From positions 1-54,818 of the IMG/VR virus record IMGVR_UViG_3300008113_010961: a DNA stretch of 54,818 nucleotides, one strand, 5' to 3'. A program made the translations under genes and the position numbers. Of this stretch, positions 30,534 to 53,734 are shown in pieces. The stretch's first letter is position 1, and each line of letters starts with the position of its first letter. A model generated the notes under the pieces. It did not search any database. It was not told the origin of the DNA and worked only from the letters and a program-made list of their open reading frames with translations. The DNA is from a virus. Taxonomy: Duplodnaviria > Caudoviricetes.

Positions 30534-32987
30534 TTAACCGCATTTACTCCAGCCACAGTCCCTGCAAACGATACAACCATCATCCCTTTGGATGTTGCTG
30601 TTCTTGCATTCTGGGCACTCTTCTCCAGTTACCTTGGTTCCATCCTTGATATACTTTTTGAGAGTTCTAGCCAATACTTTACTTAGACTGGCCAAGTCAC
30701 CCTTGGTTTTTTCAAGTTGATGTACCACAAATTCAATGCTGGTTCCATGTCTTAAAGCAGTGCTAACCATCCTGCACAAGGCATCGCCATTTTCATGGTT
30801 GTTGATGTTGGTAAGAGGATAGCTTTCGTCACCAGCTATAAAGTGATAATTGCTTCTTGACTTCTTTTTAAGAGAGCCTTTTGTGATAGACTTCTTGATG
30901 ATAGGCTGATCATTTTGCTGATTGTATCCAGCAAAGACCTCATATGGGTCCCCACCTAAAAGGCCTACTACAACGTAGTATGGGTCACTCTTAATGATGG
31001 GGAAATGAACTTCTGCCTCAATAGCTTGTGGCCTTTTTGGAGCATCATTTTTGACTATCTTGTCTACAGACTGCTTGTCTTCTTTTTTGGGCTTCTCAAT
31101 TAGCACACCTGTGCGACAATTTTTCCTATATACAGTCATACCTTTGCAACCGAACTTCCAAGCAGCTTCATAAATTGCAGCAACTTGTTCTTCAGTTACA
31201 TCTTCAGGCAGATTAACTGTCTTAGAAATCGCATGGTCAACAAACTTCTGCGCCTCTGCTTGAAGCTTTACAGCTGCAACCCAATCGATATCTTCCGCAC
31301 AGTGTTTGTACCAAGGGGACTCTTCAAGATTTGTATTCCCTGTAACTTTTCTCCACTGGGCTACCTTGGGGTGAATTACCTCGAACTCCTGCCAGCAGTC
31401 GCCATTTTGATCTTTGAAATCAATCCTTACATTCTTGTCGGTTGGATTTACCTTCTTACGACGAGTGTAGGGATTTAACATAAACAAAGGCTCAATTCCA
31501 CTTGTGGTCTGAGTCATAATAGACACAGAGCCAGTAGGAGCGATTGTTAAGTTGGCAATGTTTCTTCTGCCGTGAACGCTGATGTCATTGTAAAGAGATG
31601 GATCACACTCCTTGATCATCTTCAGGAATTGCGTATCTTTTTCCTTCTCCCAATTCCAAACTTTGAATGGCCCAAGCTCTTTTGCCATTTCCATGCTGCT
31701 TCTAAAGCTGGAAAGGCATAAGGTCTTCATAATCTTGCCGGTAGTGGCTATGCTTTCTTCGCTGCCATAACCAATACCTAAAGCAGCCAAAGTGTCGCCT
31801 AAAGCTGTAATTCCTGTTCCTGTTCTGCGACCTTTTTCACACTTGTCATAGACCATCTTCCAAAGATCAAGCTCTCTTTGGCGAATTGCTTTATCTTCTG
31901 GATCTTTCTTTACCTTGTCTATAATTGCCTGAACCTTCTCAAGCTCCATGTCAATCATGTCATCCATCATTCTCTGGATGATTTCGCCATGTTTGCTGAA
32001 AAGTTCGTAGTCAAAATAAGCATCCTTGGTAAAGGGATTGACTACATAGCTAAACAGATTCAATACCATTAAGCGGCAACTATCGTAGGCACACAATGGT
32101 AATTCACTGCAAGGATTGGTGCTAATGGTTTTAAAGCCTTCGTCTGCATAGCAGTCAACGGCATTATAATTTGTTACTTTATCCCAGAACAACAGACCCG
32201 GTTCTGCTCGCAACCAAGCATTATGGATAATCTTCTTCCATAAATCCTTAGCTTTTATAACCTTGTCATTTTCACTTGGCGGAGCATCGACAGGGAATCT
32301 CAGTCGGAAATCCTCATCCTTTTCTACTGCTTTGAGGAATTCATCGCTGAGCAACACACTGACATTTGCACCAGTTACTTTGGTGTCATCATTTTTTACT
32401 GTTATAAAACTCTCAACATCTTTATGAGCTACATTGATTGAAAGCATCAATGCACCTCTGCGACCGCTTTGTCCAACTTCTCGAATGGTGTTAGAGTACC
32501 TTTCCATCCAGCTTGTAATGCCAGTTGAGCTTCTAGCAGCATTCTTTACTGGAGCTTGTGCTGGTCTAAGCTTGCTGATATCGACTCCGACACCACCTCT
32601 TCTCTTGCTGATCTGCGCAAGAGTTTCGTCTACCTTCATAATGCCGCCATAAGAATCTTCTGGGCTTTCTACAACATAGCAATTGCTCAGACTGATAATT
32701 TGGTGATTGTTGCCAATACCAAACATCGGGCTGCCTTGGGGCACAACATACTTGAAATGCTCTAACAAGCCGTAAAACTGATCTTCGTTAAGCGGATTTT
32801 TGAATTTTTTGCTTTCAATTCTTGCAAATTCTTTTGCCAAACGCCTGTGCATTTGGTCAGGAGTTGCCTCCAAAAGCTTGCCATTGTTGTCTTTCAGGGC
32901 GTACTTATCAAGGAAAACCTTGGCCGCTAACTCATCACCTTCAAAATAAGCAACACTGCTCTCAAAAGCATTCTCATAACTATACAT
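30534..32987 (-). CDS. nrdJ: Ribonucleotide reductase, class II (adenosylcobalamin-dependent)
   Basis: SLSNC, RRGA, ANVSV, EPGLLF, TNPCSE, IAPTGS, AISKTVNLP, GCKGMTVYR; C-terminal TSCPD-like region and CPEC/CRDCG ribbon; no NrdB gene adjacent. Confidence 0.85.
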   Translation of the reverse strand: MYSYENAFESSVAYFEGDELAAKVFLDKYALKDNNGKLLEATPDQMHRRLAKEFARIESKKFKNPLNEDQFYGLLEHFKYVVPQGSPMFGIGNNHQIISLSNCYVVESPEDSYGGIMKVDETLAQISKRRGGVGVDISKLRPAQAPVKNAARSSTGITSWMERYSNTIREVGQSGRRGALMLSINVAHKDVESFITVKNDDTKVTGANVSVLLSDEFLKAVEKDEDFRLRFPVDAPPSENDKVIKAKDLWKKIIHNAWLRAEPGLLFWDKVTNYNAVDCYADEGFKTISTNPCSELPLCAYDSCRLMVLNLFSYVVNPFTKDAYFDYELFSKHGEIIQRMMDDMIDMELEKVQAIIDKVKKDPEDKAIRQRELDLWKMVYDKCEKGRRTGTGITALGDTLAALGIGYGSEESIATTGKIMKTLCLSSFRSSMEMAKELGPFKVWNWEKEKDTQFLKMIKECDPSLYNDISVHGRRNIANLTIAPTGSVSIMTQTTSGIEPLFMLNPYTRRKKVNPTDKNVRIDFKDQNGDCWQEFEVIHPKVAQWRKVTGNTNLEESPWYKHCAEDIDWVAAVKLQAEAQKFVDHAISKTVNLPEDVTEEQVAAIYEAAWKFGCKGMTVYRKNCRTGVLIEKPKKEDKQSVDKIVKNDAPKRPQAIEAEVHFPIIKSDPYYVVVGLLGGDPYEVFAGYNQQNDQPIIKKSITKGSLKKKSRSNYHFIAGDESYPLTNINNHENGDALCRMVSTALRHGTSIEFVVHQLEKTKGDLASLSKVLARTLKKYIKDGTKVTGEECPECKNSNIQRDDGCIVCRDCGWSKCG

Positions 32988-33064: not shown

Positions 33065-35077
33065 TTAAACCAAAAAACTTGTCCCGTTTTTCATCACTAA
33101 GTTCAAGTCCTGACAGCCATTTAGTAATTCTAATAAATTTGCATCATGACTGGTTACAAATACCTGTTTTTCTCTGGCAAGCTCACAAATCATGTTATAA
33201 ATGCCTTCAACACCAACAGGATCTATGTTGCTGCTTACTTCATCTAAGAACACCAAACTTGGTGACCTTCCAGTGTTTAGAGTCATGACATGAGCAAAAG
33301 CTTGACTCAAAGCTAGGTTAATTCTTCTTCTTTGTCCGTTGCTAAGAATAGGATAACCCAAAGGTTTCTTATCAGGAAACTTTGTAATAGTTTCATTCAA
33401 TTCATTGTCAAAATTAACTTCCAATTTACCATCAATCAAAAATTGCAACCAATAGTTCAAGTTACCGTTTAATGCTGGTATTATCTCATCAACAATGTAT
33501 TTCCTAATGCCATTGTCACCAAAAGCAGTTGACCAGAATGCGTAGTAATCGGTTTCTGCAACAAGTGATTCTAACTGGTCATTCTTTTGCTTAATTTGAC
33601 TTGACAGTTCTGCTAGCTTGCCTTCACTTGAAGATATAAGACCGTCATATGGACACACGGTCTCTATTTCCTCTAATAGCTTTTTCATACTGTTTTTGCA
33701 TATTTTAATTTTTTCTTCTAAGCCGCCCTTCTTTGCTGAATTATCAGGTACTTTTATTTGCTGCAAGCTTGTCAATTTATTTCTTTTAATACGAAGATCG
33801 TTTTCAACAGTTTGTAATCCAGTCTTGTTAGACTGCATGTCTGTCTGAACTTTTAACAGATTTGCTTCGATTGTTTGAATTTCAGAATCTATTTGCTTGA
33901 TGTTTGCATCGGCATTCGCATACTTTACTTTTATTTCAGCTATTTCTGCCTCATGCTCTGCCTTAATTTTTTCGTAGTTTTCTGGCTTAACTTCACCAAA
34001 ACAATGTGAGCATACTACGCCGGCTTCCAGCTTGTCTATTTTTACAATAACTTCCTTGAGCTTTGTGGCATTAGCTATGCATTCTTTTTTCTCCAAACTA
34101 TGTGGCTGCTTCAATTCGTTTTGAGTGTTTTTAGCATTTAAGAGATTATTTACCTGCGTTTGCAGTTCATTTGTTTTGTTAACGAATTCATCTCGTTTGC
34201 CTTCAAGAACTTTTAACTGTTCTGTTATAACAGCAGCTTCTTTCTGTGCTGACTCATAGGCAAGAACATCTTCTTGCTTGTCGAGTTCTGCCAATTCTTT
34301 TTCAGCAATTTCGATTTCTTTACCTAAATTTTTGATTTCCTGTACTTTGGTTGTCTTCCAAATCTTTTTCTTTTCCGCATACATCTGCAAATTTTTGTTC
34401 TCATCAGAAACTGATTTTTCAACATAGATTATTTCTGTTTGTAAATTCTTTATTGATCCAGCGTGTTCCTTTTGCAGTGATTTTGCTGCTTCCAAATAGC
34501 TGCGATACTTCTCCAAGCTAAGCAAATTTTCAACTATGCTGCGTTTTTCCGCTGCATCGCATTCCAGAAAGGATGTGCTGTTATCGTCTGTGAAAACAAA
34601 TATGTTTATAAATGTTTGGTAATTAAGACCTATAATATCCTCAATTAACTTTTGTGTGGCTGGCATACCGCCAAGTGTTAATTCTTCAGCGTGGTCAAAA
34701 TCACCAGAATCAGATTTCCACAGTCTTAAAGTATCTGGTTTTCTCTTTCTTTCTATTTTGTAATTGTCCCAATAAATTTCAATCGCCAAACCTTTGGTGG
34801 TCTTGTTATGAACCACATCTTTGTGGCTGATTTTCTTGGGGCTTTTGATTGTTTTGCCAAATAGTCCATAAACAATTATTTCTGGAATACTGCTTTTGCC
34901 GCTTCCATTTGAGGAAAGCTTTTCTTCTTCGCCTTTGCGTAAGCTGTCTAGGTTCTTGCCTTTGACAAGAACAATGTTGCCATAACTGGCCAAGTGTAAG
35001 TCTATGCCATCTTCGCCAAAACACATAAAGTTTTTGGCGACTACTCGTTTGAAATTAATTTTTTGCATCGTCTGCAA
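33065..35077 (-). CDS. sbcC: SbcC/Rad50-like recombination ATPase (T4 gp46-like)
   Basis: Walker A NGSGKS, coiled coils with CSHC zinc hook, LSNGQ signature, FLDE Walker B, SH switch. Confidence 0.9.
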   Translation of the reverse strand: MQTMQKINFKRVVAKNFMCFGEDGIDLHLASYGNIVLVKGKNLDSLRKGEEEKLSSNGSGKSSIPEIIVYGLFGKTIKSPKKISHKDVVHNKTTKGLAIEIYWDNYKIERKRKPDTLRLWKSDSGDFDHAEELTLGGMPATQKLIEDIIGLNYQTFINIFVFTDDNSTSFLECDAAEKRSIVENLLSLEKYRSYLEAAKSLQKEHAGSIKNLQTEIIYVEKSVSDENKNLQMYAEKKKIWKTTKVQEIKNLGKEIEIAEKELAELDKQEDVLAYESAQKEAAVITEQLKVLEGKRDEFVNKTNELQTQVNNLLNAKNTQNELKQPHSLEKKECIANATKLKEVIVKIDKLEAGVVCSHCFGEVKPENYEKIKAEHEAEIAEIKVKYANADANIKQIDSEIQTIEANLLKVQTDMQSNKTGLQTVENDLRIKRNKLTSLQQIKVPDNSAKKGGLEEKIKICKNSMKKLLEEIETVCPYDGLISSSEGKLAELSSQIKQKNDQLESLVAETDYYAFWSTAFGDNGIRKYIVDEIIPALNGNLNYWLQFLIDGKLEVNFDNELNETITKFPDKKPLGYPILSNGQRRRINLALSQAFAHVMTLNTGRSPSLVFLDEVSSNIDPVGVEGIYNMICELAREKQVFVTSHDANLLELLNGCQDLNLVMKNGTSFLV

Positions 35078-36128
35078 CCTTTATGATCTTATCACAAATT
35101 GTCATTAACTTCTGCTTGTCTAATTTCAAATCAACTATGTGATCAACATACTTTTCAAGTAAAGTGTTTTGATTTGCCATCAAGGTTTTTACATCTGCGA
35201 TTGCATGTTCGTCTTGCTTAACAACCTGTTTTTTAACTTGTACAGAAGATGCCTTAAGATCTTCCACAACCTTAGACATATTCTTTTTATGAGACAAGCT
35301 GTCGGTGTTTTCCGTTATAAGACAAACAAATCCATTAGCTAATTCTTCACTTGTGTAATTGTCAATTTCATCATCTTTGATGTAGAAGTGTTTCGGGCTA
35401 AATGTGTTTTCTATGTACTCAAGCTTGTTGGTATCAGAATCCAACAAAATAATGTGTTTCTTTTCGTGTGCTTCGCCAAATGATAATTGCAAAGGGCTAC
35501 CTATGTATTCAACAGTAGGCGACAACTTCTGCGCACTGTGATAGTGCCCAAAAAAAGCTCTTTTGTAATGATTGAATAAATCTCTTCCAACTATTGTCAT
35601 GTCACCATCATGTTCAATGACTACATCTGCAATACTACCGGCAGAATTTAATCTGGCTCCGTCCACTGCAATGTGTGCAAGTAAATAGGAATCTTTGATT
35701 CGATCTGCAAGTTTTGTAAGTTCTGCGACAGGGTCGTGTGTGTAAGGCATGAAATGCCAATTTACACCACAAATGGCTTGGGTTGATGTCTGATCAATTA
35801 CTTCATAATTTTTGAGTGCTTTGAATGGCCTAACACTGCTTACTGATAAATCTGTAGCAAACCAAAGATCATGATTGCCAAGAAGTAGGAATGTTTTAAA
35901 GCATTCATTTTGGTATTTTTCAAGAACATTGAAAACTTTGTTGTATGTTAGTGAATCAATCTTTTGTCTATCATGAAGCAAATCGCCGCCAAATAAAACG
36001 GCATCTACTTTCCTAGCTTTTGCTGTTTCAAACACCCATTCAAGAGCTTCAATGCAGTGTTGAAGTCTTTCTTGGCTTTTTTTGTGCGGATGTACATGAA
36101 CATCCGAAAAAAGTAGGAATTTTGGCAT
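35055..36128 (-). CDS. sbcD: SbcD/Mre11-like nuclease (T4 gp47-like)
   Basis: SDVH, GGDLLH, GNHD, GHYH, YIGSPLQLSFGE; adjacent to sbcC. Confidence 0.9.
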   Translation of the reverse strand: MPKFLLFSDVHVHPHKKSQERLQHCIEALEWVFETAKARKVDAVLFGGDLLHDRQKIDSLTYNKVFNVLEKYQNECFKTFLLLGNHDLWFATDLSVSSVRPFKALKNYEVIDQTSTQAICGVNWHFMPYTHDPVAELTKLADRIKDSYLLAHIAVDGARLNSAGSIADVVIEHDGDMTIVGRDLFNHYKRAFFGHYHSAQKLSPTVEYIGSPLQLSFGEAHEKKHIILLDSDTNKLEYIENTFSPKHFYIKDDEIDNYTSEELANGFVCLITENTDSLSHKKNMSKVVEDLKASSVQVKKQVVKQDEHAIADVKTLMANQNTLLEKYVDHIVDLKLDKQKLMTICDKIIKVADDAKN

Positions 36129-37178: not shown

Positions 37179-37297
37179 CTTGACCTCCGTAAAAGTCACA
37201 TATAGTATAAATGACTCATGGGTCAAATAATTAATACATTTGTGTGGAAGATTTTTTAGCAAAAAGCCTAGAATTAATTATAGACAGAGGAACAACA

Positions 37298-38710
37298 ATG
37301 GCAAAAATAATTTTAAAAAACGATATTAGCCAAATTGTAACCACTAATGAAACTTTGGCTAAGTTTCTTTACGACAACTTGCGTTTTCGTGACCGCAATT
37401 ATTTTCATAATCGTGCCTATCGTCAGCGTATCTGGGATGGTTTTACAAACTTCTTTAACAAAAATAATGGCAAATTTCTAACTGGCCTGTTGCCAGAAAT
37501 ACTTATGGCTTGCAAAGCACACAAAGAAGAAGTTCAAATCTTAGATCAAAGAACAAAGGTTGACTTTGCGGTAAATGAAATAAATTCCACATTCTTGCAT
37601 TCTTGCACACCGGCTGGATCGCCTGTCATTACTCTTGAAGACTACCAAGTCGATTTGGTTAATTCTGCTATAAAAAATAAACGTGGAGTTATATTTGCTC
37701 CAACCAGCGCTGGCAAATCGTTGACCATGCTTTCAATTTTGAAATGCTTACCTGCCGGTACTAAAACTCTGGTTTTGCAAAACCGTAAAACCTTGGCTAT
37801 TCAGAACTATGAAGAATACACGAAATGGGGTCTGCATAACGTTGGAAGGATTTGGGGTGGAGTTGACGAACCAAATGACATCACAGTCAGTACTGTGCAA
37901 TCTATATCCAAAGCCGCTGATCTCTTGCCAGAGGTTGAAGTTCTTTTAGTCGATGAAATTCACGACATGATGAGTACCGCCCCCAAAGCCGTTTACCGCA
38001 TGTTAAAGAAATGCAGTGTTAGAATAGCAGTTAGTGCTACACCATTTAAATTTGGTGATAGCGACAAAATTCAAAAGTTTTATGTTAAAGGTTTTTTTGG
38101 CCCTCCTTTTAAAATTAAATCAACTGAGACTGGAATTGTTACAACACAGGAATTGCAAAACAGAGGAAGACTCTCAAAAAGCCGTTGCATATTCCACAAA
38201 ATTAACAGTCCTGACCTCGAATATGAATTGTATCAAGATGCCGTAAACCTTGGTATCGTTGAAAACAACACTTTGCATGAAAAGGTTGTTGAATTAGCTA
38301 CTGCCCAATCTGGCAGAACATTGATTCTTGTGGATCGTCTGGCACATGGCGATACACTGCAAAGTCTAATTCCAAATGCTCTCTGGGTTCAAGGCAAAGA
38401 CAATGATGAAACTCGCAAACAAGTAATTGAGCAACTACAAAAATCAGAAAATTGTATTGCAATTGCTACTCAAGGTATATTTAATACCGGAATTAACGTA
38501 TTTGTTCACACGTTAATTAATGCTGCGGGCGGCCAAGCTGATCATCAAATTATCCAAAGAATGGGTAGAGGTTTAAGAACTGCAAAGGACAAAGAAGAGT
38601 TGCTTTATATTGATTTCATATTTGAAACCAATCCTTATTTGCACAAACACAGTATGAAAAGAGTAAAGATTTTGCAGAAACAAGGGCATTCAATTGAAAT
38701 ATTAGATTAA
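37298..38710 (+). CDS. uvsW: Superfamily 2 DNA helicase (T4 UvsW-like)
   Basis: WDG N-terminal motif, DYQ, APTSAGKS, DEIH, SAT, TGIN, QRMGRGLR; GAGG RBS before ATG 37298. Confidence 0.85.
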   Translation: MAKIILKNDISQIVTTNETLAKFLYDNLRFRDRNYFHNRAYRQRIWDGFTNFFNKNNGKFLTGLLPEILMACKAHKEEVQILDQRTKVDFAVNEINSTFLHSCTPAGSPVITLEDYQVDLVNSAIKNKRGVIFAPTSAGKSLTMLSILKCLPAGTKTLVLQNRKTLAIQNYEEYTKWGLHNVGRIWGGVDEPNDITVSTVQSISKAADLLPEVEVLLVDEIHDMMSTAPKAVYRMLKKCSVRIAVSATPFKFGDSDKIQKFYVKGFFGPPFKIKSTETGIVTTQELQNRGRLSKSRCIFHKINSPDLEYELYQDAVNLGIVENNTLHEKVVELATAQSGRTLILVDRLAHGDTLQSLIPNALWVQGKDNDETRKQVIEQLQKSENCIAIATQGIFNTGINVFVHTLINAAGGQADHQIIQRMGRGLRTAKDKEELLYIDFIFETNPYLHKHSMKRVKILQKQGHSIEILD

Positions 38711-39071: not shown

Positions 39072-39887
39072 ATGAACTATAAAATGCTTTTTAAAGAATG
39101 GCTTGGAAAAAGTCCAGAAGTTAAGTATGGATTTAGGCCAAATGTCACTGCTATTCAAACTCCATTCTATGAGCTTGAACCCATCGAAGTATTTGACGTT
39201 GAAAAATGCCTTAATGCTTTGGCTGATACTGGAAGATTGGATGGCAAAGAAGCAAATGATATATGGAAGACTCAATTGTCATACGGACATGGACTAGGAA
39301 AGATTACAGTAACCAGCTCTCCATACGGATCTTATAAATTTGTAATACGAAGATATGTTCCAGATGCAGTAGGTAATCTAATTCCTTTGTGCAGACTTGT
39401 AATACCGCTAACAAATGATTACAACCACAGGGGTCCAAATGATCCCGGTGAGGAAATTCTTGCAGTCAAAATTTATGATAAACTAAAACAAATCATGTCT
39501 GAGCCTTATCCGGCTCCAAACAAGAATTATCAGAATAAATTTGCAAAATTAGTTTACAACTTCAGCAAGGCAGTCAAACTAAAACACCCAGCTATTATGG
39601 TTTATCAAGGTACTGTAAAGCTAGATGATAACAACTATATCATTAGTTTTACATTTAAAGGTTATGGAAATGGTGTTCCTAATTCACTGAAAGCCGAAGA
39701 ATTCCTTATCAACTGGCAATATCTTCCAGAAGTAGGGCTCTTACGATGCTGGGGATATGATGTTGTATCGCCTGTTAAACAAAGAGAGTGGCAGCCAGCA
39801 CCAAGCGAATGGGATGAATATTTTTCTCCAAACCAGCCAGAAAAACAAATCATGAGCTGTGTTATGGAAGCATTCATGACATATTAG
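39072..39887 (+). CDS. Hypothetical protein
   Basis: 271-aa ORF; LFKEWL leader. Confidence 0.7.
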   Translation: MNYKMLFKEWLGKSPEVKYGFRPNVTAIQTPFYELEPIEVFDVEKCLNALADTGRLDGKEANDIWKTQLSYGHGLGKITVTSSPYGSYKFVIRRYVPDAVGNLIPLCRLVIPLTNDYNHRGPNDPGEEILAVKIYDKLKQIMSEPYPAPNKNYQNKFAKLVYNFSKAVKLKHPAIMVYQGTVKLDDNNYIISFTFKGYGNGVPNSLKAEEFLINWQYLPEVGLLRCWGYDVVSPVKQREWQPAPSEWDEYFSPNQPEKQIMSCVMEAFMTY

Positions 39888-40563
39888 TCTCAAATGCAAA
39901 TAAATCTTGATAAATCTTTTTAGCATTATCCACGTTAAATTTATCAAAACTTACCGCATCCGTTCTTTCATACAGATCTTTTTTAATTTCTTCTGGCAAT
40001 TTTTTAACCCATTCCGACAAGTAAAAGTAAATTGGCTTTATTTTTTTTAAAATAGCAGCAGTTCTAACCTTGCTACTTTTTGAATTGAATGTCTCAAATG
40101 TTAAATTAGCACCGCAAATATTTTGTATTTCCTTTAAACTAACTATCAAATCATATTCCATGTCTGAATCTTGCATGGAATAAGTTTGTTTTGTTAACTT
40201 ATTGGCTTCTGCTACTAATTTCTTCCAATAGAACCAACGTCTTTCTGCTGGCTCTCCTGTTAAAATAACAGGCTCAACTAACACAGGTAAACCTTGTTGT
40301 TGTATCTTTTTAAACAGTGTTAATTGTGCTTTGATGAAATATTCGTATTCCTCTATGGTTTTGAATTGTCTTTCTTTAATTAACTTGAGAATTGTTCTAA
40401 AGAGAACACTTTTGCGTAAATTTTTTAATTGCGGTATTTTTGAATGCATGTATGTAGGGAAAAGCGTTCTTGAGTGTTTAATCCAGACGCAACATATTCT
40501 GTATGCCGTATCCTCTGGGCCTTCAAAATTAAATTTCATGCTTAGTTCTGGATCGTAATTCAT
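39874..40563 (-). CDS. Hypothetical helical protein
   Basis: Likely start ATG 40563 (MNYDPEL...); the upstream extension in the ORF track runs into the structured non-coding element. Confidence 0.65.
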   Translation of the reverse strand: MNYDPELSMKFNFEGPEDTAYRICCVWIKHSRTLFPTYMHSKIPQLKNLRKSVLFRTILKLIKERQFKTIEEYEYFIKAQLTLFKKIQQQGLPVLVEPVILTGEPAERRWFYWKKLVAEANKLTKQTYSMQDSDMEYDLIVSLKEIQNICGANLTFETFNSKSSKVRTAAILKKIKPIYFYLSEWVKKLPEEIKKDLYERTDAVSFDKFNVDNAKKIYQDLFAFETNMS

Positions 40564-40620
40564 AAGTTTAATCCTAGTCAGTTTATTTATGTTTGACAAT
40601 GGCGGAAGCACTAAAATATT

Positions 40621-41065
40621 GCATGCATGAGTAAGGCGAATTAACGGCCTGAAAGTACATCGAGTTTCCTTCATAAAACTTGTGTTTTAACTGAACACCT
40701 GTGGAAATAAGGAAATGGAAAAACCATGCTGGGTCTTAATGATCAAGAATTCTTAACCTAGTCGGTTATTTATTCAGATCACTTAGGATGAACCCCTAGG
40801 GTACCCACGAGATCCTTAGTACTGGCAACAACAACAAGGTGTGCCTTATTCCAATCCAATTTAGGCGGGTAGTTCCATACAAGAATGAGTATTACTCAAG
40901 GTGGTATGGACAGGAATTAAGGTTAAGAGTTGTAAACAGTTAAGTAAGTCATTCGAGTATCTTAAAGACCCTTTAAACACAGTAGATAACACTTAAATTA
41001 TCTATTGTTTTTTAAAACGGCTCTTTAAGAACCCGCCCCTCGGTCTGTAGTGGTGATTAAAGAAT
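40621..41065 (+). ncRNA. Candidate large structured non-coding RNA (unidentified class)
   Basis: Essentially ORF-free gap with many complementary segments: 40748-59/40920-31, 40960-41030 long hairpin, 40781-89/40812-20, 40874-80/40904-10, 40665-71/40709-15, pseudoknot 40864-70/41031-37; G-U pairs favour the plus strand. Confidence 0.5.
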
Positions 41066-41076
41066 TCTCATATCTC

Positions 41077-41104
41077 TTGCAATTTGTTATATTTGTGGTA
41101 GAAT
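41077..41104 (+). promoter_or_regulatory. Sigma70-type promoter with extended -10
   Basis: TTGCAA-16 bp-TAGAAT with TG one base upstream of the -10 box. Confidence 0.5.
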
Positions 41105-41129
41105 GTTAGAATTAATGCAAGGAGATTAC

Positions 41130-42434
41130 ATGCAATTGCAAGACATAACAACTAAGTTGTTTGATTTCTTCAAGCAAACAAAAGTTATCTTCGTTACATG
41201 GGATCCAAAATCCTTTGATTCTACCACTCTAGCTAAGTTACAGGTGCGCATAAAATTTGAAAATTCAAAAGGCCTCTCTGTTACATTTCCGCTGAACGCC
41301 AGCAATTGTTTGCTATTTACAAATATTCTTGAAAAAATGGATCAGGCAAAGCGAACTGTATTTGTCGGTCATGATTTCAAAATACTTTTTACTTTTTTCC
41401 GTAGGCTTAACAACAAACTTTTGGACATAGCTAACGTATTTGATTTAGAATGGTTTGAATCCTACTACAGCAAAGAAAGCTCTGTTGGCAACCTTGCACT
41501 TCAGGCCAAACACCTCAAAGAATGGCTTGGTAATGAAGAAGCACTCAAGACTTATTCCAACGTATTTTCAAAATTAATTGTTAAGACTTTGCCAGCAATA
41601 GAAAGCAATGGTCTGATTAACAACAACCTTGGGCTTATGGTTTTCCCGAACTTCGTTGTAGAAGGTCAGACTAACGGCAGATTATCTTGCATTTGTGAAT
41701 ACAAACGTTGTTACAACCCTCACAGCTTGTCTGATGATGAAAAGGCTGATCTGCATTTAACTAAGGAATCCGAAATGTTTGTTTGGTTTGATTACAACAA
41801 TATGGAAGTTAGTGTTCTGGCGGAATTGGCTGAAGATGACCAATTGAAAGAAATAATTACTAATCATCCGAAGCTAGTTTATGAAAAAATATTTGAAGCT
41901 GTCACAGGGACAACAAACACAGAAGCAAGAAAAATTGCCAAACAAATGTTCTTGCCATGCATCTATGGTCAAGGTGCTTCAGGCTTGGCCAAAAGCCTTG
42001 ATATAAGTCTGGACCAAGCAGCAATCTATTTGCACAACATGAGAAATAAGTTTTCAAAAAGTTTTGCATTTGTTGAGAATGCTCAAAAATTGGCAGAGGA
42101 AAACCAAGCAGTTTCTGACAGGTTTGGAAGGATCCGTAGGTTCCCTTCTGGCGACTCGTTTAAGGCTCGAAATTTCGCAATACAGGCACCTTCTGCCCTT
42201 CTTTGCCTCGAAGCCCTTGTGAACCTGCAAGAGGTCGCAGAATCGCTTTTTAAGGTCATGTTTACGGTACATGACGGGTATTGTATTTCTGGTGATAAGA
42301 GGAATTTGGAAGAGGCTTACAGAAAGGCAAAGACCGTTCTGGAAAAGCCCTCACGGTTTCTATCAGTAAAGTTGAACGTTTCAGCAAAACTAGGGAGAAA
42401 CTTAGCGAAAATGACATCCATAGGAAAAAGGTAG
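41130..42434 (+). CDS. polA: Family A DNA polymerase, reduced (no thumb, degenerate 3'-5' exonuclease)
   Basis: TNGRLS, motif A DYNNMEVSVLA, motif B RKIAKQMFLPCIYG, NFAIQ, motif C VHD; AAGGAG RBS before ATG 41130 (alternative start 41103). Confidence 0.8.
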   Translation: MQLQDITTKLFDFFKQTKVIFVTWDPKSFDSTTLAKLQVRIKFENSKGLSVTFPLNASNCLLFTNILEKMDQAKRTVFVGHDFKILFTFFRRLNNKLLDIANVFDLEWFESYYSKESSVGNLALQAKHLKEWLGNEEALKTYSNVFSKLIVKTLPAIESNGLINNNLGLMVFPNFVVEGQTNGRLSCICEYKRCYNPHSLSDDEKADLHLTKESEMFVWFDYNNMEVSVLAELAEDDQLKEIITNHPKLVYEKIFEAVTGTTNTEARKIAKQMFLPCIYGQGASGLAKSLDISLDQAAIYLHNMRNKFSKSFAFVENAQKLAEENQAVSDRFGRIRRFPSGDSFKARNFAIQAPSALLCLEALVNLQEVAESLFKVMFTVHDGYCISGDKRNLEEAYRKAKTVLEKPSRFLSVKLNVSAKLGRNLAKMTSIGKR

Positions 42435-42437
42435 ATT

Positions 42438-42998
42438 ATGTTATCAGTTTTTAAAAACTTTCCAGTAAGCAATGATGAGTATATCAAGCTAGATAAAAAA
42501 TTCGGACAGCTTTGTTATTATGCTTCTTGGCAACTTATCAGGAAAAACAGTGCTAATAATCACCAGTTTGATCTTGAGGATGTTTCACAAGAACTAATGG
42601 TTGCCGTGTTGAGGGCTGCTAGTTACTACAAAAGACAGGTGTATATTGACAGCAGTTTAACAGCGTTGCAGTCTGCAAAGTTAGATAAAACAAGCAAGTT
42701 TATTTTGAAGGAATTAGAAAACCTTTGGAAAAATAGAACTAGGCATGGTGCTAGCAGGCAGAAGTTTGGAGATTATCAGGAACAAATTCTAAAAGACTTT
42801 TGTAAAAAATTTCTCCCTGCTAATTTAATTCCGCCCGTTGATCGGCCATTAATTATGGAAACCAAATTTTTAACTTATTGCAAACAAATTTTATGGAATG
42901 CAACAAAGCATTTGGGTCGTAAAATTAGTAGAGAAAAGCCACTAAGAGCAGGTCAGGTTAGCTTGAGCGACCACGATTACTTAAGCTCGATTGAGTAG
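42438..42998 (+). CDS. Sigma-factor region 2-like protein
   Basis: DLEDVSQELMVAVLRAASYY and FLTYCKQILWN resemble sigma region 2 motifs separated by an insertion. Confidence 0.5.
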   Translation: MLSVFKNFPVSNDEYIKLDKKFGQLCYYASWQLIRKNSANNHQFDLEDVSQELMVAVLRAASYYKRQVYIDSSLTALQSAKLDKTSKFILKELENLWKNRTRHGASRQKFGDYQEQILKDFCKKFLPANLIPPVDRPLIMETKFLTYCKQILWNATKHLGRKISREKPLRAGQVSLSDHDYLSSIE

Positions 42999-43000
42999 AT

Positions 43001-43073
43001 TGGAGAGTTAAGGAGTTGAACCTTATGTACAGCTTTATAAGAACTGCCCTCAAAACCGTCGAGGACACTCTCC
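43001..43073 (-). tRNA. tRNA-Ile(UAU)
   Basis: Cloverleaf: acceptor GGAGAGT/ACTCTCC, D-stem CCTC/GAGG, anticodon stem CAGTT/AGCTG with loop CT-TAT-AA, T-arm TAAGG-TTCAACT-CCTTA, discriminator A; CCA not encoded. Confidence 0.85.
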
Positions 43074-43076
43074 ATT

Positions 43077-43150
43077 TGGGCTTCCTCGGACTTGAACCGA
43101 GAACCGAACGATTATGAGTCGTTTGCTCTAACCGATTGAGCTAGAAGCCC
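43077..43150 (-). tRNA. tRNA with CAU anticodon, most likely tRNA-Ile2 (lysidine type)
   Basis: Acceptor GGGCTTC/GAAGCCC, D-arm GCTC/GAGC, anticodon arm AACGA-CTCATAA-TCGTT resembling bacterial Ile2 (ileX), TTCAAGT loop; lacks initiator-Met features. Confidence 0.9.
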
Positions 43151-44650: not shown

Positions 44651-44856
44651 AACCTGAAATGTATATAGTAAGGGGCGAGACATTGGAAAGTGCCCCCAAG
44701 TATGGCAGATCATTTTCTTGTCATTGGATGAGAAGTTGGTATTGGAGTTGGACCAAGATATTTAATTACAATGACAATTTTTGTTATTGTTGGGGCAGCA
44801 AAACGATGTCGCAGTACACTTGGTATGGTATAAGGCATGATAAGAGTAAGGTGTGA
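44635..44856 (+). CDS. Small hypothetical protein
   Basis: 73-aa ORF with GGAG upstream, overlapping both neighbours. Confidence 0.4.
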   Translation: MLFRLKPEMYIVRGETLESAPKYGRSFSCHWMRSWYWSWTKIFNYNDNFCYCWGSKTMSQYTWYGIRHDKSKV

Positions 44857-45082
44857 TGCTAATTTAACAGGCGTACCATTAGACAGGGCGACTCCGTTTT
44901 TTCTTTACAAAAACAGTTTAAATTATTCTCAATCATTACAAAATAGTAAGATTTTTGGTGATAGCTCTGATAGTAATTTTAAAGGCTTTTCTTGTTCACA
45001 TTCTTGGAAACAAATTTCATTTAGACATATTGGCAGTATATTTGGTAGGCAGCCTGAAAGTAGTATTAAATTAATAGTCTAA
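44837..45082 (+). CDS. Small hypothetical protein
   Basis: 81-aa ORF with ATG start in the plus-strand run. Confidence 0.4.
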   Translation: MIRVRCDANLTGVPLDRATPFFLYKNSLNYSQSLQNSKIFGDSSDSNFKGFSCSHSWKQISFRHIGSIFGRQPESSIKLIV

Positions 45083-45134
45083 TAATTCATATATTTTAAT
45101 ATATAACTCTATAGTCCCATACTATGGAGTTGGC

Positions 45135-46710: not shown

Positions 46711-49245
46711 ATGAGCAATACAACTACTAACGTCCCTGAGTTTTTTGCATTATCAACACAGCCCCAGATTGTATTCAATGTGGATTGTGCTGTTGGTACT
46801 GCTAAGGCTGTTATTACTGTTGCTGGTGGTTCTGCTTCTTCGGCGTATGTACTTAAGAACGGCGTATCTCAAGGAACAGTTTTTGCAGGTAGTCCTCCTC
46901 AAACAATAAGTTTTGCTGTAGTAAGTGGTGATAAGGTAACAATCGAGACGGACGCTGGTGTTTATGTATCGCCAAATGATGTTACGGGAACAGTAGAATT
47001 CATTGCTCCAGCAACTCCTACACCGACAGAAAGCCCAACACCTACCGCCACTGAATCTCCTACTCCAAGTCCCTCACCAAGTCAGAGTCCATCTCCAACT
47101 CCTTCGCCTAGTCCCAGTGAGTCACCGATACCGACTGGAACACCATTCCCAACAGGAATGGCAACACCAACAGAAACACCAAGTCCTACAGTTAGTCCTA
47201 ATCCAACTGCTACACCAACGCCTAGTCCATCGGGAAGCCCATCACCAACGCCAAGTCCTTCACCTAGTGAATCTCCTAGTCCGACACCTAGTGAATCACC
47301 AAGCCCAACGCCTTCACCTAGTCCCAGTGAGTCACCGATACCGACTGGAACACCGTTCCCAACAGGAATGGCAACACCAACAGAGACGCCAAGCCCTACA
47401 GTTAGTCCTAGTCCAACTGCTACACCAACGCCAAGTCCTTCACCTAGTGAATCTCCTAGCCCGACACCTAGTGAATCACCAAGCCCAACGCCTTCTCCTA
47501 GTCCTAGTGAATCACCTATACCAACTGGAACACCTTTTCCTACTGGAATGGCAACACCAACAGAAACACCAAGTCCTACAGTTAGTCCTAATCCAACACC
47601 TACTCCTACACCTAGTAGTAGTACTAGTCCTACTCCAAGTCCTAGTCCATCAAATAGTCCGTCACCTACACCGAGTGCATCGCCGTCACCCAGTCCTAGT
47701 AGCACACCAGCTCCTACAGGGACACCTTTCCCTACTGGAATGGCAACACCAACAGAAACACCAAGTCCTACAGTCAGTCCCAATCCAACTGCTACACCAA
47801 CGCCGAGTCCATCAGAAAGTCCGACGCCGTCACCAACACCATCGGATTCACCGAGTCCGACTCCAAGTGAGAGTCCAACACCGACACCTAGCGAGAGCCC
47901 GACACCAACTCCATCAGAAAGTCCTACTCCCTCTCCCTCTGAGAGTCCAACACCGACACCTAGCGAGAGCCCAAGTCCTACTCCGAGTCCAAGTCCATCG
48001 GAAAGTCCGTCGCCTACTCCTAGCGACAGTCCAAGTCCTACACCGTCACCAACCCCCAGTGACAGTCCTAGTCCAACGCCAAGTCCGACACCGAGCGAAT
48101 CGCCAAGTCCAACTCCTTCTCCGAGTCCTTCACCGGGAATACTTCCAATAAGTCCTCCGACTTTAGGCGATACGACTGTTAACATTTCCTTTAATCAATT
48201 GTTGACAACAAGTGGCGGGACATCTCCTTACACATTCAGCATCAATAGTGGATCTTTGCCTGCTGGTGTAACTTTGGATTCAAGTGGTTTGCTAAGTGGA
48301 ACACCAAATGTAGATGGAACATTCAGTTTCAATGTTCATGTCGTTGATTCCGGCGCACCAACAGCAACAGGAGATCAGCCCTACACATGGACAATTAATC
48401 CGCCTGTTAGCGTAGAGCCACCAACACTAAATGCAATGGTGCAAGGCATCACATTTATGGGTGGGTGCTACTCAGTAGGCGGAACTCCTGCTTACACGTA
48501 TTCTGTTGTTGGCGGAGCTTTACCTGCTGGATTAACTCTAGATGTTGGCGGAACGATTAATGGAGCGCCTACAGTAGTTGGCCCTTACTCCGTAACCATT
48601 CAGTCAACGGATTCAGTGGGAGCTACAGGAACTAGAACTTACACAGGAGAAGTAGTTCCAGAAGACATTGAAGTCCAAGCATCAACTGATTTTGCTGTAG
48701 CTGCTATAGCCATGCCTTATCAAGGTTGGGCTTTTGGAAATATGGGCACAGGCATGGGCAGCCCCAGCATTAGATTTGTTCAAATAAGTGGTTCTACACA
48801 AAGTGTAAGAATTACTTTAAGGAATAACTCTACCCAGACATTCTTGGTAAATGTAAATAGCATAAATTATGCGGTTTACGCCTCTGAGAATTTCGACAAG
48901 ACATTTGCTGTACCACAGAATGGAATCATGACAGTTGGCGCATTGACAGGAGGATTCTTCCCTGCAAGTTCTGTTACAGGAGCGGTTTATGTAAATGCAC
49001 CTGCAGATTGTGCTTACAGGCTAAAACTGACACCAACCGTAAGAGCAGTAGAAGGCGACGAAGGCAGTTTGGATACTTCTGTAATCAATGGCAGAAGCAT
49101 GCAAAGAACTGGCTATTTGACCATTACAGAAAATGTAACTCAGGTAAAAGTAATGGAATTACCAGATGGTAGCTGCATAAATACACAAATACAGCAATTG
49201 CCTGATGTAATTCCTTTGATTACTGATGGTTATCCCCAAGGTTAA
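46711..49245 (+). CDS. Mucin-like PST-repeat protein with two Ig-like (He_PIG-type) domains
   Basis: About 375 aa of Pro/Ser/Thr repeats; [32 protein letters not shown] and [21 protein letters not shown] Ig repeats; C-terminus shared with 49256. Confidence 0.8.
47003..48135 (+). repeat. Intragenic SP/TP tandem repeats including 4 copies of [23 protein letters not shown]
   Basis: GGAATGGCAACACCAACAGA recurs at 47155, 47365, 47545 and 47737 (spacings 210, 180, 192 bp). Confidence 0.85.
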
Positions 49246-49255
49246 GGTGTAAACT

Positions 49256-52200
49256 ATGGCAATTAGAGTCTATGCTTGCGGTTATAACAGTTTCGGTAAT
49301 TTAGGAAACAATTCTACTGTTCAAACATCAAGCCCGATCATAATGAGCACCACGGGTTGGTATCAGATGCCAGTTGGTAGCAGTACTATGGCTGCTATAG
49401 GTATAGACAGAAATGTTTATACGTGGGGATCTGGAAATAGTGGCGCTTTGGGAAATGATACTACAAATATAAGTGTTAGTAGCCCAATACAGATTACTTC
49501 TGATGGTACTTGGAGTATGGTTGGTGGTGGGTATTTCTTTGTTGCATTAAAAAATGATGGCACAATTTGGTCATGGGGGAATGGATCTCAAGGAGGAATT
49601 GGAAATAGTCTTAAAATAAACATTTCTTCGATGATTCAAATAGGGACGGAAAATAATTGGACTTTTGTAACTGCAAACCAACAGGCAGGTTGTGCTTTTG
49701 GAATTAAAACCGATGGTAGTTTGTGGTCATGGGGTAGCAATCTAAGTGGCCAACAGGGGCGAAATACTACCGTTTCTGTATCTAGTCCAGTGCAAGTAGG
49801 AACTGCATCTAACTGGTCACAAATTGCTTGCGGTCAGAGCAGCTTTGCAATTAAGACAGATGGCACATTGTGGGCTACTGGAGACGGAACTTCTGGAAAC
49901 AATGGACTAAACAGAGTAACTGCTGTTAGTAGTTGGACTCAAGTAGGCGCAGGCACTGATTGGGCATATTGCTGCAGTCAGAGTAACAACATGGCTTTGA
50001 AGAAGAATGGGACCCTTTGGGTTTGGGGTTTGAATAGTGTAGGAAATTTAGGAGATGGGACAGTAATAAACAAGAGTAGCCCCATTCAAATCGCTGGTAG
50101 CTGGACGATGGCTACCGCACAAGGTGACGGTTATAAAGGCGTAAAGACAGATGGGACTTTATGGAGTTGGGGAGCATCCACATATGGTCAAATAGCTGAC
50201 GGTTTTGCAATAAACAGAAGCAGTCCTGTTCAAATTTTGATTGGCTCTGGTCCTTTTACTAATCTTGGATATAATAATCAGCAATTATGGGTTCAGGCTG
50301 ATGGCCCTACTCCAACGCCTACCAACACGCCTTCTCCAACACCTTCGCCGTCTCCTTCGGGAAGTCCATCACCAACTCCATCTCCCACAACAAATAACTA
50401 CAATCTTTATGGATGGGGTCAAAATGGTACCACAGGACTTGTAGGAAATAATTCTACAGTAAATGTTAACAGTCCTGTTTTGGTTATGTCTAGCATAGAT
50501 CCATTTGTTCCAACAACTGGTAAAAGTTCTGCACTATTAAAATATGGACAATTGTATACTTGGGGCAGAAGTGCAAGCGGGGAATCAGGAAGAAATACCA
50601 CAGTAGCAGCTCTAAGTCCTGTGCTAGTAGGGTTAGAAAATAACTGGGTTTTTGTTTGCACGGGTTATAACTGCGGCGGCATAAAATCTGACGGTAGCCT
50701 ATGGATGTGGGGCACAGGCGCAAATGGTTGTATAGGAGATGGAGTGGTAGTCAGCAGGAGCAGTCCGGTTCAGATTGCAGGAAGCTGGTCAGTAGTTCGC
50801 ACTACTTCTTTCTCTAGTCCATTTAATACAGTTGCGATTAGAACTGATGGGACCTTGTGGGCGTGGGGCGATAACTCAATTGGTCAATTAGGCCAAAATG
50901 ATCTTATAAGCAGAAGTTCTCCAGTACAAATAGGTAATGCAAATAATTATATTGATTGTGCTTACCTTTCTGTAGGATTAGCTCCTCCTTTCCAAACATC
51001 ACTAATTATTGCTTTAAGAGCTGATGGCACTTTATGGGCTGTTGGGAATGGCGCATATGAAGGAAGAACTGGAACGGGTGTCCTTACAAATTACTCAAGT
51101 ATTACGCAAATTGGAACTTCAACAGATTGGGCTTCATTTTCTGGAACTACTAACTGTGTTGGTGCAATTAAAAAGGACGGCACCCTATGGATGTGGGGCA
51201 CTGGCGGTAATGGCGCATTAGGTCTTGGAAACACAATATCACGATCCAGTCCCACACAAATGGGAACTGGAAATGATTGGGCTGAGGTGCAATGCAATTA
51301 CTATTACGGAATGGCAAGAAAAACAAATGGTACAATTTGGTCTTGGGGTATTGGTGGAACAGGAAATCTAGGTAATGGAACTGTAAGTAGAAGTTCCCCC
51401 TTGCAGATAGGACCAAGCACAAACGCTTGGTATGCCTTAGGTGGTGGAGAATATACTTCTTTTGGAATTAGATTGCCAGATCCAACTCCGACTCCAACTT
51501 TAACACCGTTGCCAACTCCTCCTGTGCAAGGAGATATTTTCGGCTGGGGTATTGGAACCACAGGGCAATTAGCCCAAGTGACAAAAGCTGTTAACTCATC
51601 TTCTCCTGTGATAATGCCTAATTATTCTTGGGCACAAGTTGCAGGTATATACAGCAATTTTGCTTGCGTAACCGCTGATGGGAACCTTGTTCTGTGGGGT
51701 GCTAATGGCAATGGCCAATTTGGTATTGGCAACGTTTCTAGTTATTCTAGTCCAGTAATTAATCCAGCAACAGGAGTTTGGGCATCTGTATCTGGTGGTG
51801 TTGTTGTTGGAGCAATTAAAAAAGATGGCACATTATGGATGGCAGGGCAAGGAAATAATGGTGCTTTAGGCACAAATACTGCGGTTGGCAGATCATCATT
51901 TGTACAGGTAGGTGCCGCAACTGATTGGACAAAAATAAGTTGTTCTGCATATGGTAATGGGTCAGTTTTTGGATGGCGTGGCAATAATACTTTTGCGTGG
52001 GGGGAAAACACTGTTGGACAATTAGGAATAGGTACCATAGTGAATGTTTCCACTCCAGTGCTTATAGACGCAACAGGTAGTTGGCAGGATATATTAACTG
52101 GAAACAGCTATAGTATAGGACTTAAGAAAGATGGTACGCTTTGGGCAACTGGAATGGGGTCAAATGGCAGGACGGGACTTAATTCCACCACAAATAGAAG

Positions 52201-53734
52201 TTCGTGGACACAAATTGGCACATCCAATGATTGGGGTTACGTAGCGGTTGGAAACTTAAATGTAGGCGCTGTGAAAAAAGATGGCACTGCATGGATATGG
52301 GGGGCCGGAACTAACGGAGCAAACGCTAATAATTCTATTACAGACGTTTCTTCTCCCCTTCAAATAGGTTCTGCAACTAACTGGAGGTTTATAGGGGTTG
52401 CTACTAGTGCAGCAGGAGCTGTAAAATCCGATGGTACGCTCTGGATGTGGGGTGTAAATACTTTTGGTAATCTTGGAAATAATACCACTGTAAATTACAG
52501 TAGTCCTGTGCAAACAGTATATGCAGACACTAGTTGGGTTAATATTATAGGTGGATTAAATGGTTTTATCGGTTATAGAATAGCACCGAGTCCAACAGCA
52601 ACTACAACACCTACTGTGACTGCGAGTCCAACTCCAACGCCAAGCGAGAGTCCTAGTCCAACTCCATCACCAAGTCCGAGCAATAGCCCTAGTCCATCTC
52701 CGAGTCCATCGCATAGTCCGTCACCGACACCAAGTCCGAGTCCATCGCATAGTCCGTCACCGACACCAAGTCCGACAAACAGTCCGAGCCCGACTCCTAG
52801 TCCTAGCCCTTCACCAAGTCCGACAACAACGGCCACGCCATTTCCGTCACAAAGTCCCTTCCCGACTTTAACACCGCAACCAACTCAATCTCCTCAGCCA
52901 ACTTTCACTCCACAACCGACTTTGAGTCCTGTTCCGACCGTAACGCCATTCCCGACTACAACTCAGGATCCAACTCCTACGGGTAGTCCAACACCTTTAC
53001 CTACTGACACGCCACAGCCAACAGTAACGCCAGTGCCAACTGTAACGCCTTTCCCAACTTTAACGCCGTTGCCAACGTTTACGCCGGTACCGACATACAC
53101 ACCACAGCCAACTCCCGTGTATCCAGCAACTAACAATTACATTTTGGTTCCTTATCAGAACAATATGAATGTTACTAATATTGTGCCTTCACAGGAAGGA
53201 TACGCATTCAATAATGGTGGAGGTTCAGGAATTAATTTACTGTTGCAGTTCATGCAGAACGATCCTACGCCGCAACAAGTATACATCGAATTAACAAATA
53301 ATAGTTCTGTTGACATGGTGATTACTGTAGGTAATTTGGTTTACGTTATTGAACCCGGTCAATACTTCAATACAGTTGCTTTGATGCCGTTTGGCCAGAA
53401 AGTTACTGTGCAAAGTTCAGAGTCTTCAACATTTACACCAAGTTCAGTGTATGGACAGATTTTTGTTCTGCCTACTCCTACGCCAACGCCAGCAGAAATA
53501 TTGAAGCTACAAAGAAATATTATAGCTGTGGAAGGCGATGCAGGAAGTGTTGATACAGGATTAATCAATGGCACCAGCATTCAAAGAACTGGTTACATTA
53601 CGATTACAGAAAATGTAACGCAGGTAAAAGTCATGGAAATACCTGACGGTGGATTAATAGACAAGACTATACAGCAGATCCCAGAAGTTATACCTTTGGT
53701 TTGTTCTGGATATCTATGGGTAGGGGATGTTTAA
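49256..53734 (+). CDS. RCC1/BLIP-II-like repeat protein (three beta-propellers) with PST stalks; putative tail fibre/adhesin
   Basis: Many K.DGTLW.WG.N..GQLG......SSPVQI repeats in three blocks separated by PTPTP linkers; long PST stalk; C-terminal module shared with 46711. Confidence 0.85.
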   Translation: MAIRVYACGYNSFGNLGNNSTVQTSSPIIMSTTGWYQMPVGSSTMAAIGIDRNVYTWGSGNSGALGNDTTNISVSSPIQITSDGTWSMVGGGYFFVALKNDGTIWSWGNGSQGGIGNSLKINISSMIQIGTENNWTFVTANQQAGCAFGIKTDGSLWSWGSNLSGQQGRNTTVSVSSPVQVGTASNWSQIACGQSSFAIKTDGTLWATGDGTSGNNGLNRVTAVSSWTQVGAGTDWAYCCSQSNNMALKKNGTLWVWGLNSVGNLGDGTVINKSSPIQIAGSWTMATAQGDGYKGVKTDGTLWSWGASTYGQIADGFAINRSSPVQILIGSGPFTNLGYNNQQLWVQADGPTPTPTNTPSPTPSPSPSGSPSPTPSPTTNNYNLYGWGQNGTTGLVGNNSTVNVNSPVLVMSSIDPFVPTTGKSSALLKYGQLYTWGRSASGESGRNTTVAALSPVLVGLENNWVFVCTGYNCGGIKSDGSLWMWGTGANGCIGDGVVVSRSSPVQIAGSWSVVRTTSFSSPFNTVAIRTDGTLWAWGDNSIGQLGQNDLISRSSPVQIGNANNYIDCAYLSVGLAPPFQTSLIIALRADGTLWAVGNGAYEGRTGTGVLTNYSSITQIGTSTDWASFSGTTNCVGAIKKDGTLWMWGTGGNGALGLGNTISRSSPTQMGTGNDWAEVQCNYYYGMARKTNGTIWSWGIGGTGNLGNGTVSRSSPLQIGPSTNAWYALGGGEYTSFGIRLPDPTPTPTLTPLPTPPVQGDIFGWGIGTTGQLAQVTKAVNSSSPVIMPNYSWAQVAGIYSNFACVTADGNLVLWGANGNGQFGIGNVSSYSSPVINPATGVWASVSGGVVVGAIKKDGTLWMAGQGNNGALGTNTAVGRSSFVQVGAATDWTKISCSAYGNGSVFGWRGNNTFAWGENTVGQLGIGTIVNVSTPVLIDATGSWQDILTGNSYSIGLKKDGTLWATGMGSNGRTGLNSTTNRSSWTQIGTSNDWGYVAVGNLNVGAVKKDGTAWIWGAGTNGANANNSITDVSSPLQIGSATNWRFIGVATSAAGAVKSDGTLWMWGVNTFGNLGNNTTVNYSSPVQTVYADTSWVNIIGGLNGFIGYRIAPSPTATTTPTVTASPTPTPSESPSPTPSPSPSNSPSPSPSPSHSPSPTPSPSPSHSPSPTPSPTNSPSPTPSPSPSPSPTTTATPFPSQSPFPTLTPQPTQSPQPTFTPQPTLSPVPTVTPFPTTTQDPTPTGSPTPLPTDTPQPTVTPVPTVTPFPTLTPLPTFTPVPTYTPQPTPVYPATNNYILVPYQNNMNVTNIVPSQEGYAFNNGGGSGINLLLQFMQNDPTPQQVYIELTNNSSVDMVITVGNLVYVIEPGQYFNTVALMPFGQKVTVQSSESSTFTPSSVYGQIFVLPTPTPTPAEILKLQRNIIAVEGDAGSVDTGLINGTSIQRTGYITITENVTQVKVMEIPDGGLIDKTIQQIPEVIPLVCSGYLWVGDV

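Follow-up and report, generated by a model that had tools for sequence, protein, structure and literature searches.

A large, conserved pseudoknotted RNA gene upstream of the DNA polymerase gene in uncultured freshwater phages

We found that the intergenic region upstream of a family A DNA polymerase gene (PolA) in uncultured freshwater phages carries a structured RNA gene of about 420 nt, with an intricate fold that has been kept through long evolution and that matches no known RNA family, so that it is probably a new class of functional RNA. In the window, an IMG/VR virus record of 54,818 nt rated about 10% complete, the element spans about 40623-41044 on the plus strand, and its presence there is nearly certain. 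The folded RNA comprises 11 helices and three long-range pairings, of which six helices and all three long-range pairings are supported by statistical tests and five helices by position and by eye only. The function of the RNA is unknown.

The element lies among replication genes. To its left are a ribonucleotide reductase gene (30534-32987), an SbcC-like and an SbcD-like gene (33065-36128), an SF2 helicase gene (37244-38710) and three small genes of no known family; to its right are the gene for the 434-aa PolA (41130-42434, plus strand; PF00476, E = 6.5e-27) and that for a 186-aa protein with a faint sigma-70 region 2 hit. The minus-strand gene immediately to the left (39874-40563) encodes a 229-aa all-helical protein of unknown family, and its start (ATG 40563) is conserved in relatives. 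The gap between this start and that of PolA (ATG 41130) is therefore 566 bp, the largest between ORFs of at least 100 aa in the window (the next is 44651-45134, 484 bp). Folding energy alone is weak evidence for a structured RNA: the plus strand gives -121.5 kcal/mol (z = -2.35, with 3 of 100 shuffles as good), and the minus strand gives z = -3.40 (0 of 100 shuffles).

The strong evidence is comparative. A protein search with PolA returned 80 relatives, 36 of them full-length at 40% identity or more, and an alignment of these retrieved 64 metagenome loci, 80 viral loci and 1 genome locus. We searched these loci by nhmmer, first with the element and then with growing alignments, and the element was found upstream of PolA on the same strand in 23 of 23 loci in which PolA aligns full-length at 39% identity or more and at least 400 nt of flank is kept. 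These represent 19 distinct sequences including the window, two of which lack the 5′ part because their contigs end. The HMM hit nothing in the other PolA loci, and the window has one copy. A search of viral contigs with the pattern AAACAGTTAAGTNAGT gave 119 stretches, mostly by chance, and the HMM matched none of them apart from copies of the two relatives already known, although every member was found through PolA and members elsewhere could not have been seen. A covariance model (R1) scores all 19 members at 57-95 bits, whereas the best scores among 55 unrelated loci are 19.6 and 18.5 bits. Conservation follows the pattern of a structured RNA, with short invariant blocks (AAACC, AGGUnnGCC, GUUA, a U run, CC...C) alternating with hairpins that vary in length and sequence.

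To test the helices inferred from the alignments, we measured pairing and covariation on the plain MAFFT alignment of 16 full-length sequences (A3). For P2, P4, P6, P8, PK-b and PK-c, 88.5% of 495 cells were paired against 75.2% in shuffles, 21 of 33 pairs had changes on both sides, and the covariation score was 0.368 against 0.149, a value reached by 0 of 500 shuffles (slid controls: 0.035-0.115). An unbiased scan of all column pairs recovered P6, PK-c and P2, and also revealed PK-a and P7, in place of which a local hairpin after GGUUAAGA had first been considered. P1, PK-a and P7 together were 88.3% paired against 63.6%, with a score of 0.686 against 0.221 (0 of 500 shuffles). Because MAFFT shifts the register in some rows, we added an alignment-free test, in which the two strands of the same sequence formed better duplexes than strands taken from different members for six helices, in all but 0 to 3 of 5000 permutations. 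RNAalifold, given only A3, returned P1, P2, P6 and PK-c.

At the 5′ end, P1 (40623-27 ATGCA/40656-60 TACAT, with one mismatch in the window; 4 of 5 pairs covary, cognate test 1 of 5000) encloses a conserved internal loop (AGUA 40630-33/GAA 40651-53) and the hairpin P2 (40634-37/40647-50, loop 40638-46), which is 100% paired with 2 of 4 pairs covarying. P3 (40664-71/40709-16, inner 40682-86/40694-98) is a variable hairpin, and by eye a hairpin of variable length and sequence sits at this place in all 17 sequences that keep the 5′ part. It is followed by the conserved junction AAAAACC (40719-40725), in which A103 and C105 are invariant in A3. P4 (40727-32/40822-27; 5 of 6 pairs covary, cognate test 0 of 5000) closes a three-way junction with P5 (40734-44/40777-88, lengthened in the window) and P6 (40796-40801/40814-19; 89.6% paired, 5 of 6 pairs covary). 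P5 is supported by eye from GGCGG/CTGCC, AGCGG/CTGCT and GACGG/CTGTC in compact relatives.

P7 (40831-35 ACAAC/40929-33 GTTGT; 98.4% paired, 4 of 4 pairs covary) encloses the conserved junctions AAGGUGU (40836-42) and UAAGA (40924-28) and helix P8 (40843-52/40913-23), whose cognate duplex has -12.4 kcal/mol against -6.5 kcal/mol for non-cognate strands (0 of 5000). AGGU, GCC and GUUA are invariant. P9 (40874-40910) is a variable hairpin that carries insertions of up to about 90 nt in four loci (L002, L124, L196 and L268). Further downstream are P10 (40960-68/41022-30) and P11 (40972-89/40998-41015), a long A/U-rich hairpin with a U-rich 3′ arm in which the U run is invariant; a P10 equivalent directly 5′ of the PK-c 3′ strand varies, by eye, as TAAGG/CCTTA, TTCAAG/CTTGAA and TCAAGGG/CCCTTGA.

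Three long-range pairings tie these domains together. PK-a joins the P2 loop (TTAAC 40641-40645) to a strand 300 nt downstream, 3′ of P7 (GTTAA 40939-40943), and crosses P2 and P1; it is 98.8% paired with 3 of 5 pairs covarying (TTAAC/GTTAA, TTGAC/GTCAA, TTGGC/GCCAA, TTGTC/GACAA and GTGTC/GACAC). PK-b joins CGAG in the P6 loop (40808-40811) to CTCG (41039-41042) and crosses P6 and P4; it is 87.5% paired, its middle pair switches among A-U (5), G-C (9) and G-U (2), and the cognate test gave 3 of 5000. An alternative partner for the 3′ CYCG proposed by RNAalifold, the GGG after P4, shows no covariation (G-U 7, G-C 6, A-C 3). PK-c joins GGCGGGT inside P8 (40864-40870) to ACCCGCC (41031-41037) and crosses P8 and P7 (90.2% paired, 5 of 7 pairs covary). 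The 3′ strands of PK-c and PK-b (41031-41044) are the likely 3′ border of the folded RNA.

A preliminary description of this region had listed eight pairings, including a pseudoknot, and had proposed either an unclassified large phage ncRNA or a structured ssDNA origin. The listed complementary segments are all present in the sequence, and five of the eight pairings are supported: AGGC/GCCT (P2), TTTCCTT/AAGGAAA (P3), TCCATAC/GTATGGA (P9), the ~70-nt hairpin (P10/P11) and GGCGGGT/ACCCGCC (PK-c). Three are not supported. The 12-bp stem (40748-59/40920-31) has its 5′ arm in a P5 insertion absent from most relatives, and its 3′ arm is taken by the conserved P8 and P7; ACTTAGGAT/ATCCTTAGT competes with the conserved P5 and P6; and the proposed closing stem (40734-45/41051-63) uses the 5′ arm of P5. 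The pseudoknot claim was right, but PK-c crosses P8 and P7 rather than the 12-bp stem, and P1, P4, P6, P7, P8 and two further pseudoknots had been missed. The ncRNA interpretation fits all the evidence.

The 33 tested pair columns hold 43 G-U against 10 A-C cells, including a G-U closing P8 in 16 of 16 sequences, which fits a plus-strand RNA. A comparison of duplex energies between the two strands was, however, ambiguous, with P1, P2, P4 and P8 favouring plus but PK-b and PK-c scoring better on minus. The RNA is probably made by the host RNA polymerase from its own sigma-70-type promoter, a start that is inferred: a promoter-like site (TTGACA, 16 nt, AATATT; 10 of 12 consensus matches) lies at 40593-40620, and a TAnAAT-like hexamer (TAAAAT 40612-40617 in the window) occupies the same alignment column in nearly all full-length relatives, 5-11 nt before P1. 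PolA has a separate promoter-like site at 41077-41104 (TTGCAA, 16 nt, TAGAAT with TG), and by eye a similar site sits at the same place in relatives. No consistent terminator follows the RNA, so read-through into PolA is possible.

Sixteen public sequencing runs, mostly labelled freshwater or lake, contain at least half of the sampled words of 40400-41300, and two metatranscriptome runs contain a small share. When two DNA runs and the two RNA runs were compared with 39800-42500, the DNA runs covered the whole stretch, but the RNA runs, from two studies, each gave a single contig, at 40647-40806 (no differences) and 40895-41039 (two differences). Both lie inside the element and neither on a flanking gene. 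This is only a weak hint of a stable RNA, since these low-depth contigs show neither strand, ends nor level and could be DNA carry-over.

The element matches no Rfam 15 family (4227 models). The whole window at gathering scores gave only a tRNA (43077-43150), and 40500-41200 at E up to 10 gave four chance-level hits, the best with 19.6 bits against a threshold of 70. In 11 homologous loci at E up to 10, no family hit the element apart from a hairpin-only miRNA match on both strands of one locus (L131). ARAGORN found no tmRNA, only tRNA-Ile and tRNA-Met at 43000-43150. The element lies between divergent genes, so it is not an intron, and the group I intron model RF00028 did not hit the element, although it gave weak hits elsewhere in two homologous loci (L125 and L126); the helix order also does not fit P3-P7 with P4-P6 between them. 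RNase P RNA and group I introns are similar in size and complexity, with several long-range pseudoknots and a conserved core beside variable peripheral hairpins, but no RNase P model hit the element at E up to 10, and by eye we saw no complement to the GAAAGU stretch near the ACAG motif, nor a P4-type pairing flanked by what appear to be the conserved RNase P motifs. A blastn search of GenBank phages with the element gave no match, and the best tblastn match to PolA in the same collection has 27.5% identity, so the lineage is uncultured. We found no description of this RNA in two literature searches and in word searches of two papers (PMC10690425 and bioRxiv 10.64898/2026.09.22.753630), although it may be among the more than 10,000 candidate viral RNAs from IMG/VR listed in the supplements of the former.

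The general kind, a large ornate phage ncRNA of unknown function, has precedents in GOLLD and ROOL (PMC12286853), so what is new is the family and the fold, not yet a mechanism. As those RNAs appear to be, the element is phage-borne, several hundred nucleotides long and rich in helices and pseudoknots with invariant junction bases. It matches neither Rfam model at E up to 10, is smaller (about 390-480 nt) than they appear to be, and lies in the replication module next to PolA rather than, as they seem to, beside tRNA genes. The ncRNAs of DRT2, DRT10, UG27 and retrons (bioRxiv 10.64898/2026.09.22.753630; PMC12632851) are likewise structured, a few hundred nucleotides long and fixed directly upstream of a polymerase gene on the same strand, but the polymerase here is a family A DNA polymerase (PF00476) and not a reverse transcriptase, no template repeat is evident, and there is no Rfam hit. 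The phi29 pRNA, a phage RNA that seems to work in trans as part of a protein machine, appears to be shorter (120-174 nt), with a different fold and context, and here too the element has no Rfam hit.

We hypothesize, as somewhat more likely than not, that the RNA accumulates as a stable species of its own and acts in trans through its tertiary structure, as the RNA part of an RNP, a ribozyme or a self-assembling RNA, in service of the replication module (helical protein, RNA, mini-PolA) in which it is fixed. Our reasons are the degree of tertiary constraint, the separate PolA promoter-like site and the RNA-run contigs. Natural RNAs of this size that combine several covarying pseudoknots with invariant junction bases are rare, and nearly all of those that are understood seem to be ribozymes, cores of ribonucleoprotein machines or RNA-only assemblies. 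The link to replication rests on conserved gene order only. A more far-reaching possibility, which we regard as unlikely, is that the RNA is an obligatory working part of the replication machinery, either as a subunit needed by the reduced PolA or the helical protein (a DNA-polymerase RNP), or as a new natural ribozyme class that processes itself or a replication substrate.

An origin-linked primer or activator RNA, forming an R-loop or processed at its 3′ end and extended by the adjacent polymerase, perhaps in the manner of ColE1 RNA II with Pol I or mitochondrial LSP transcripts with Pol gamma, is an unlikely alternative that is nevertheless not excluded. The element sits at the divergent switch point of the replication module, cumulative G-C is in a flat trough at 38-42 kb with a local minimum at 40284, no terminator follows the RNA, and a U run follows PK-b in about 8 of 19 members. 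The helical protein also has very weak fold hits to AAA+ lid domains and to a phage helicase loader, but these are below the tools' own reliability limits. In contrast, three covarying pseudoknots and invariant junction bases are far more than known primer RNAs need, a repeat search found no iterons or repeated boxes but only two-copy direct repeats of the kind expected by chance, and the global G-C minimum is at 48243, with the trough coinciding with the change of gene strand; GC skew is ambiguous as an origin marker.

Less likely still is a cis-acting leader of the PolA mRNA, that is, a very large riboswitch-like or protein-binding regulator controlling PolA through read-through from the upstream promoter. 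The element is always directly upstream of PolA on the same strand in the 19 clear members, no terminator lies between, and a 14-nt inverted repeat (41071-84/41134-47) brackets the PolA ribosome site. However, the promoter-like site with an extended -10 lies between the RNA and PolA, we found no expression platform overlapping the conserved fold (without mapped transcripts), neither RNA-run contig fell on PolA (weak evidence), and about 420 nt appears to be larger than known leader aptamers. A DNA-level element (an ssDNA origin or cruciform) or chance complementarity is very unlikely, for although both strands fold better than shuffles and the minus strand has the stronger z, G-U cells exceed A-C cells, pairings over 100-400 nt are kept through compensatory change, and conserved single-stranded junctions stand beside variable hairpins.

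The 229-aa helical protein is conserved in all members and always divergent from the RNA. Its AF2 model has a pLDDT of 87.5, but no reliable fold match was obtained: there was no Pfam or PHROG hit, the ESM Atlas gave nothing, Foldseek against the PDB found no match at E = 0.001 or better, and BFVD gave a best E of 7e-3 to an unnamed protein and "DNA helicase loader" at E = 0.49. One member is carried by a MAG labelled Acidimicrobiaceae, but this is a chimeric bin that gives no host, since the contig has 33-37% GC against 71.8% for another contig of the bin and only 1 of 15 genomes of that family has the RNA.

The three-part module may reach further than the 19 members. A motif search hit three remote loci upstream of PolA (L161, L226 and L229) and L264/L267, but also three unrelated loci. 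In L161 and L226 the helical protein is clearly homologous (hhalign probability 98.8 and 98.6, respectively), and those gaps carry the AGGUnnGCC...GGUUA signature with fitting P7 and P8 arms, although P7-type flank pairing also occurred in the unrelated hits and does not discriminate. R1 places the remote cases at noise level (L161: 22.3 bits, E = 0.053; L229: 18.9 bits), a strict descriptor found 10 of 18 known members, 1 of 50 remote gaps and 0 of 50 reverse strands, and nhmmer on the gaps alone found none. We therefore treat L161, L226, L229 and L264/L267 as candidates only. In L226 a 165-aa ORF lies between the element and PolA, which, if L226 is a true member, argues against an obligatory leader role. 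A profile of the helical protein finds a homologue divergently upstream of PolA in 86 of 145 PolA loci, some on contigs of 200-570 kb, giving 68 distinct gaps in which the space between the two genes is never under 417 nt, with a median of 669.

A homologue of the 229-aa helical protein lies divergently upstream of the mini-PolA in 86 of 145 PolA loci (L124-L268), also on contigs of 200-570 kb, and the space between the two genes is never shorter than 417 nt. The intergenic element may be far more widespread than sequence search can show. A MAG labelled uncultured Acidimicrobiaceae (G001) contains a 271-kb contig of 33-37% GC (C1, loci L268-L273) with both PolA and the RNA, and another contig of 71.8% GC (C2, locus L274); the low-GC contig is probably a large phage binned by mistake.

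In an alignment of 37 PolA sequences, the N-terminal part of the 434-aa PolA (residues 1-210, window 41130-41760) has invariant D30, T32, D105 and E110; it matches no Pfam exonuclease model. The stretch reads DSTT where PolA exonuclease motif I would be expected to have DxE, so the proofreading domain may be degenerate. A 14-nt inverted repeat (41071-41084 / 41134-41147, 93% complementary) pairs the -35 region of the PolA promoter-like site with the first codons of PolA, and would bracket the ribosome site only in read-through transcripts. The 186-aa protein directly after PolA (42438-42998, plus strand) has a faint Sigma70_r2 hit (E = 0.0075, below the cut-off), and an ORF of the same size follows PolA in four of the other loci (L002, L226, L229, and L264); it may be a phage sigma-like factor.

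Two adjacent tRNA genes, tRNA-Ile (anticodon tat) and tRNA-Met (cat), are located at 43000-43150 on the minus strand, about 2 kb downstream of the RNA and on the opposite strand, and the locus L002 has two tRNA hits at the matching place (5340-5492, minus strand). Weak group I intron matches were observed downstream of PolA in two relatives (L125: 3594-3780, minus strand, 35.5 bits, E = 2e-5; L126: 3510-3696, minus strand, 34.1 bits, E = 6e-5), both under the gathering score of 50. In L125 the match lies beside a tRNA-like hit at 3459-3532, and may represent an intron in or near a tRNA gene.

Further along the window, GC rises to 52.7% with a GC skew of -0.41 at 47000-48000, inside the 844-aa ORF at 46711-49245 (Ig-like He_PIG domain), and long ORFs are open in other frames (47003-48151, plus strand; 47082-48185, minus strand). 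This compositionally odd stretch sets the global cumulative-skew minimum. A 1492-aa protein encoded at 49256-53734 (plus strand) is made largely of RCC1-like repeats (PF25390, E = 1.7e-114), which is unusual for a phage.
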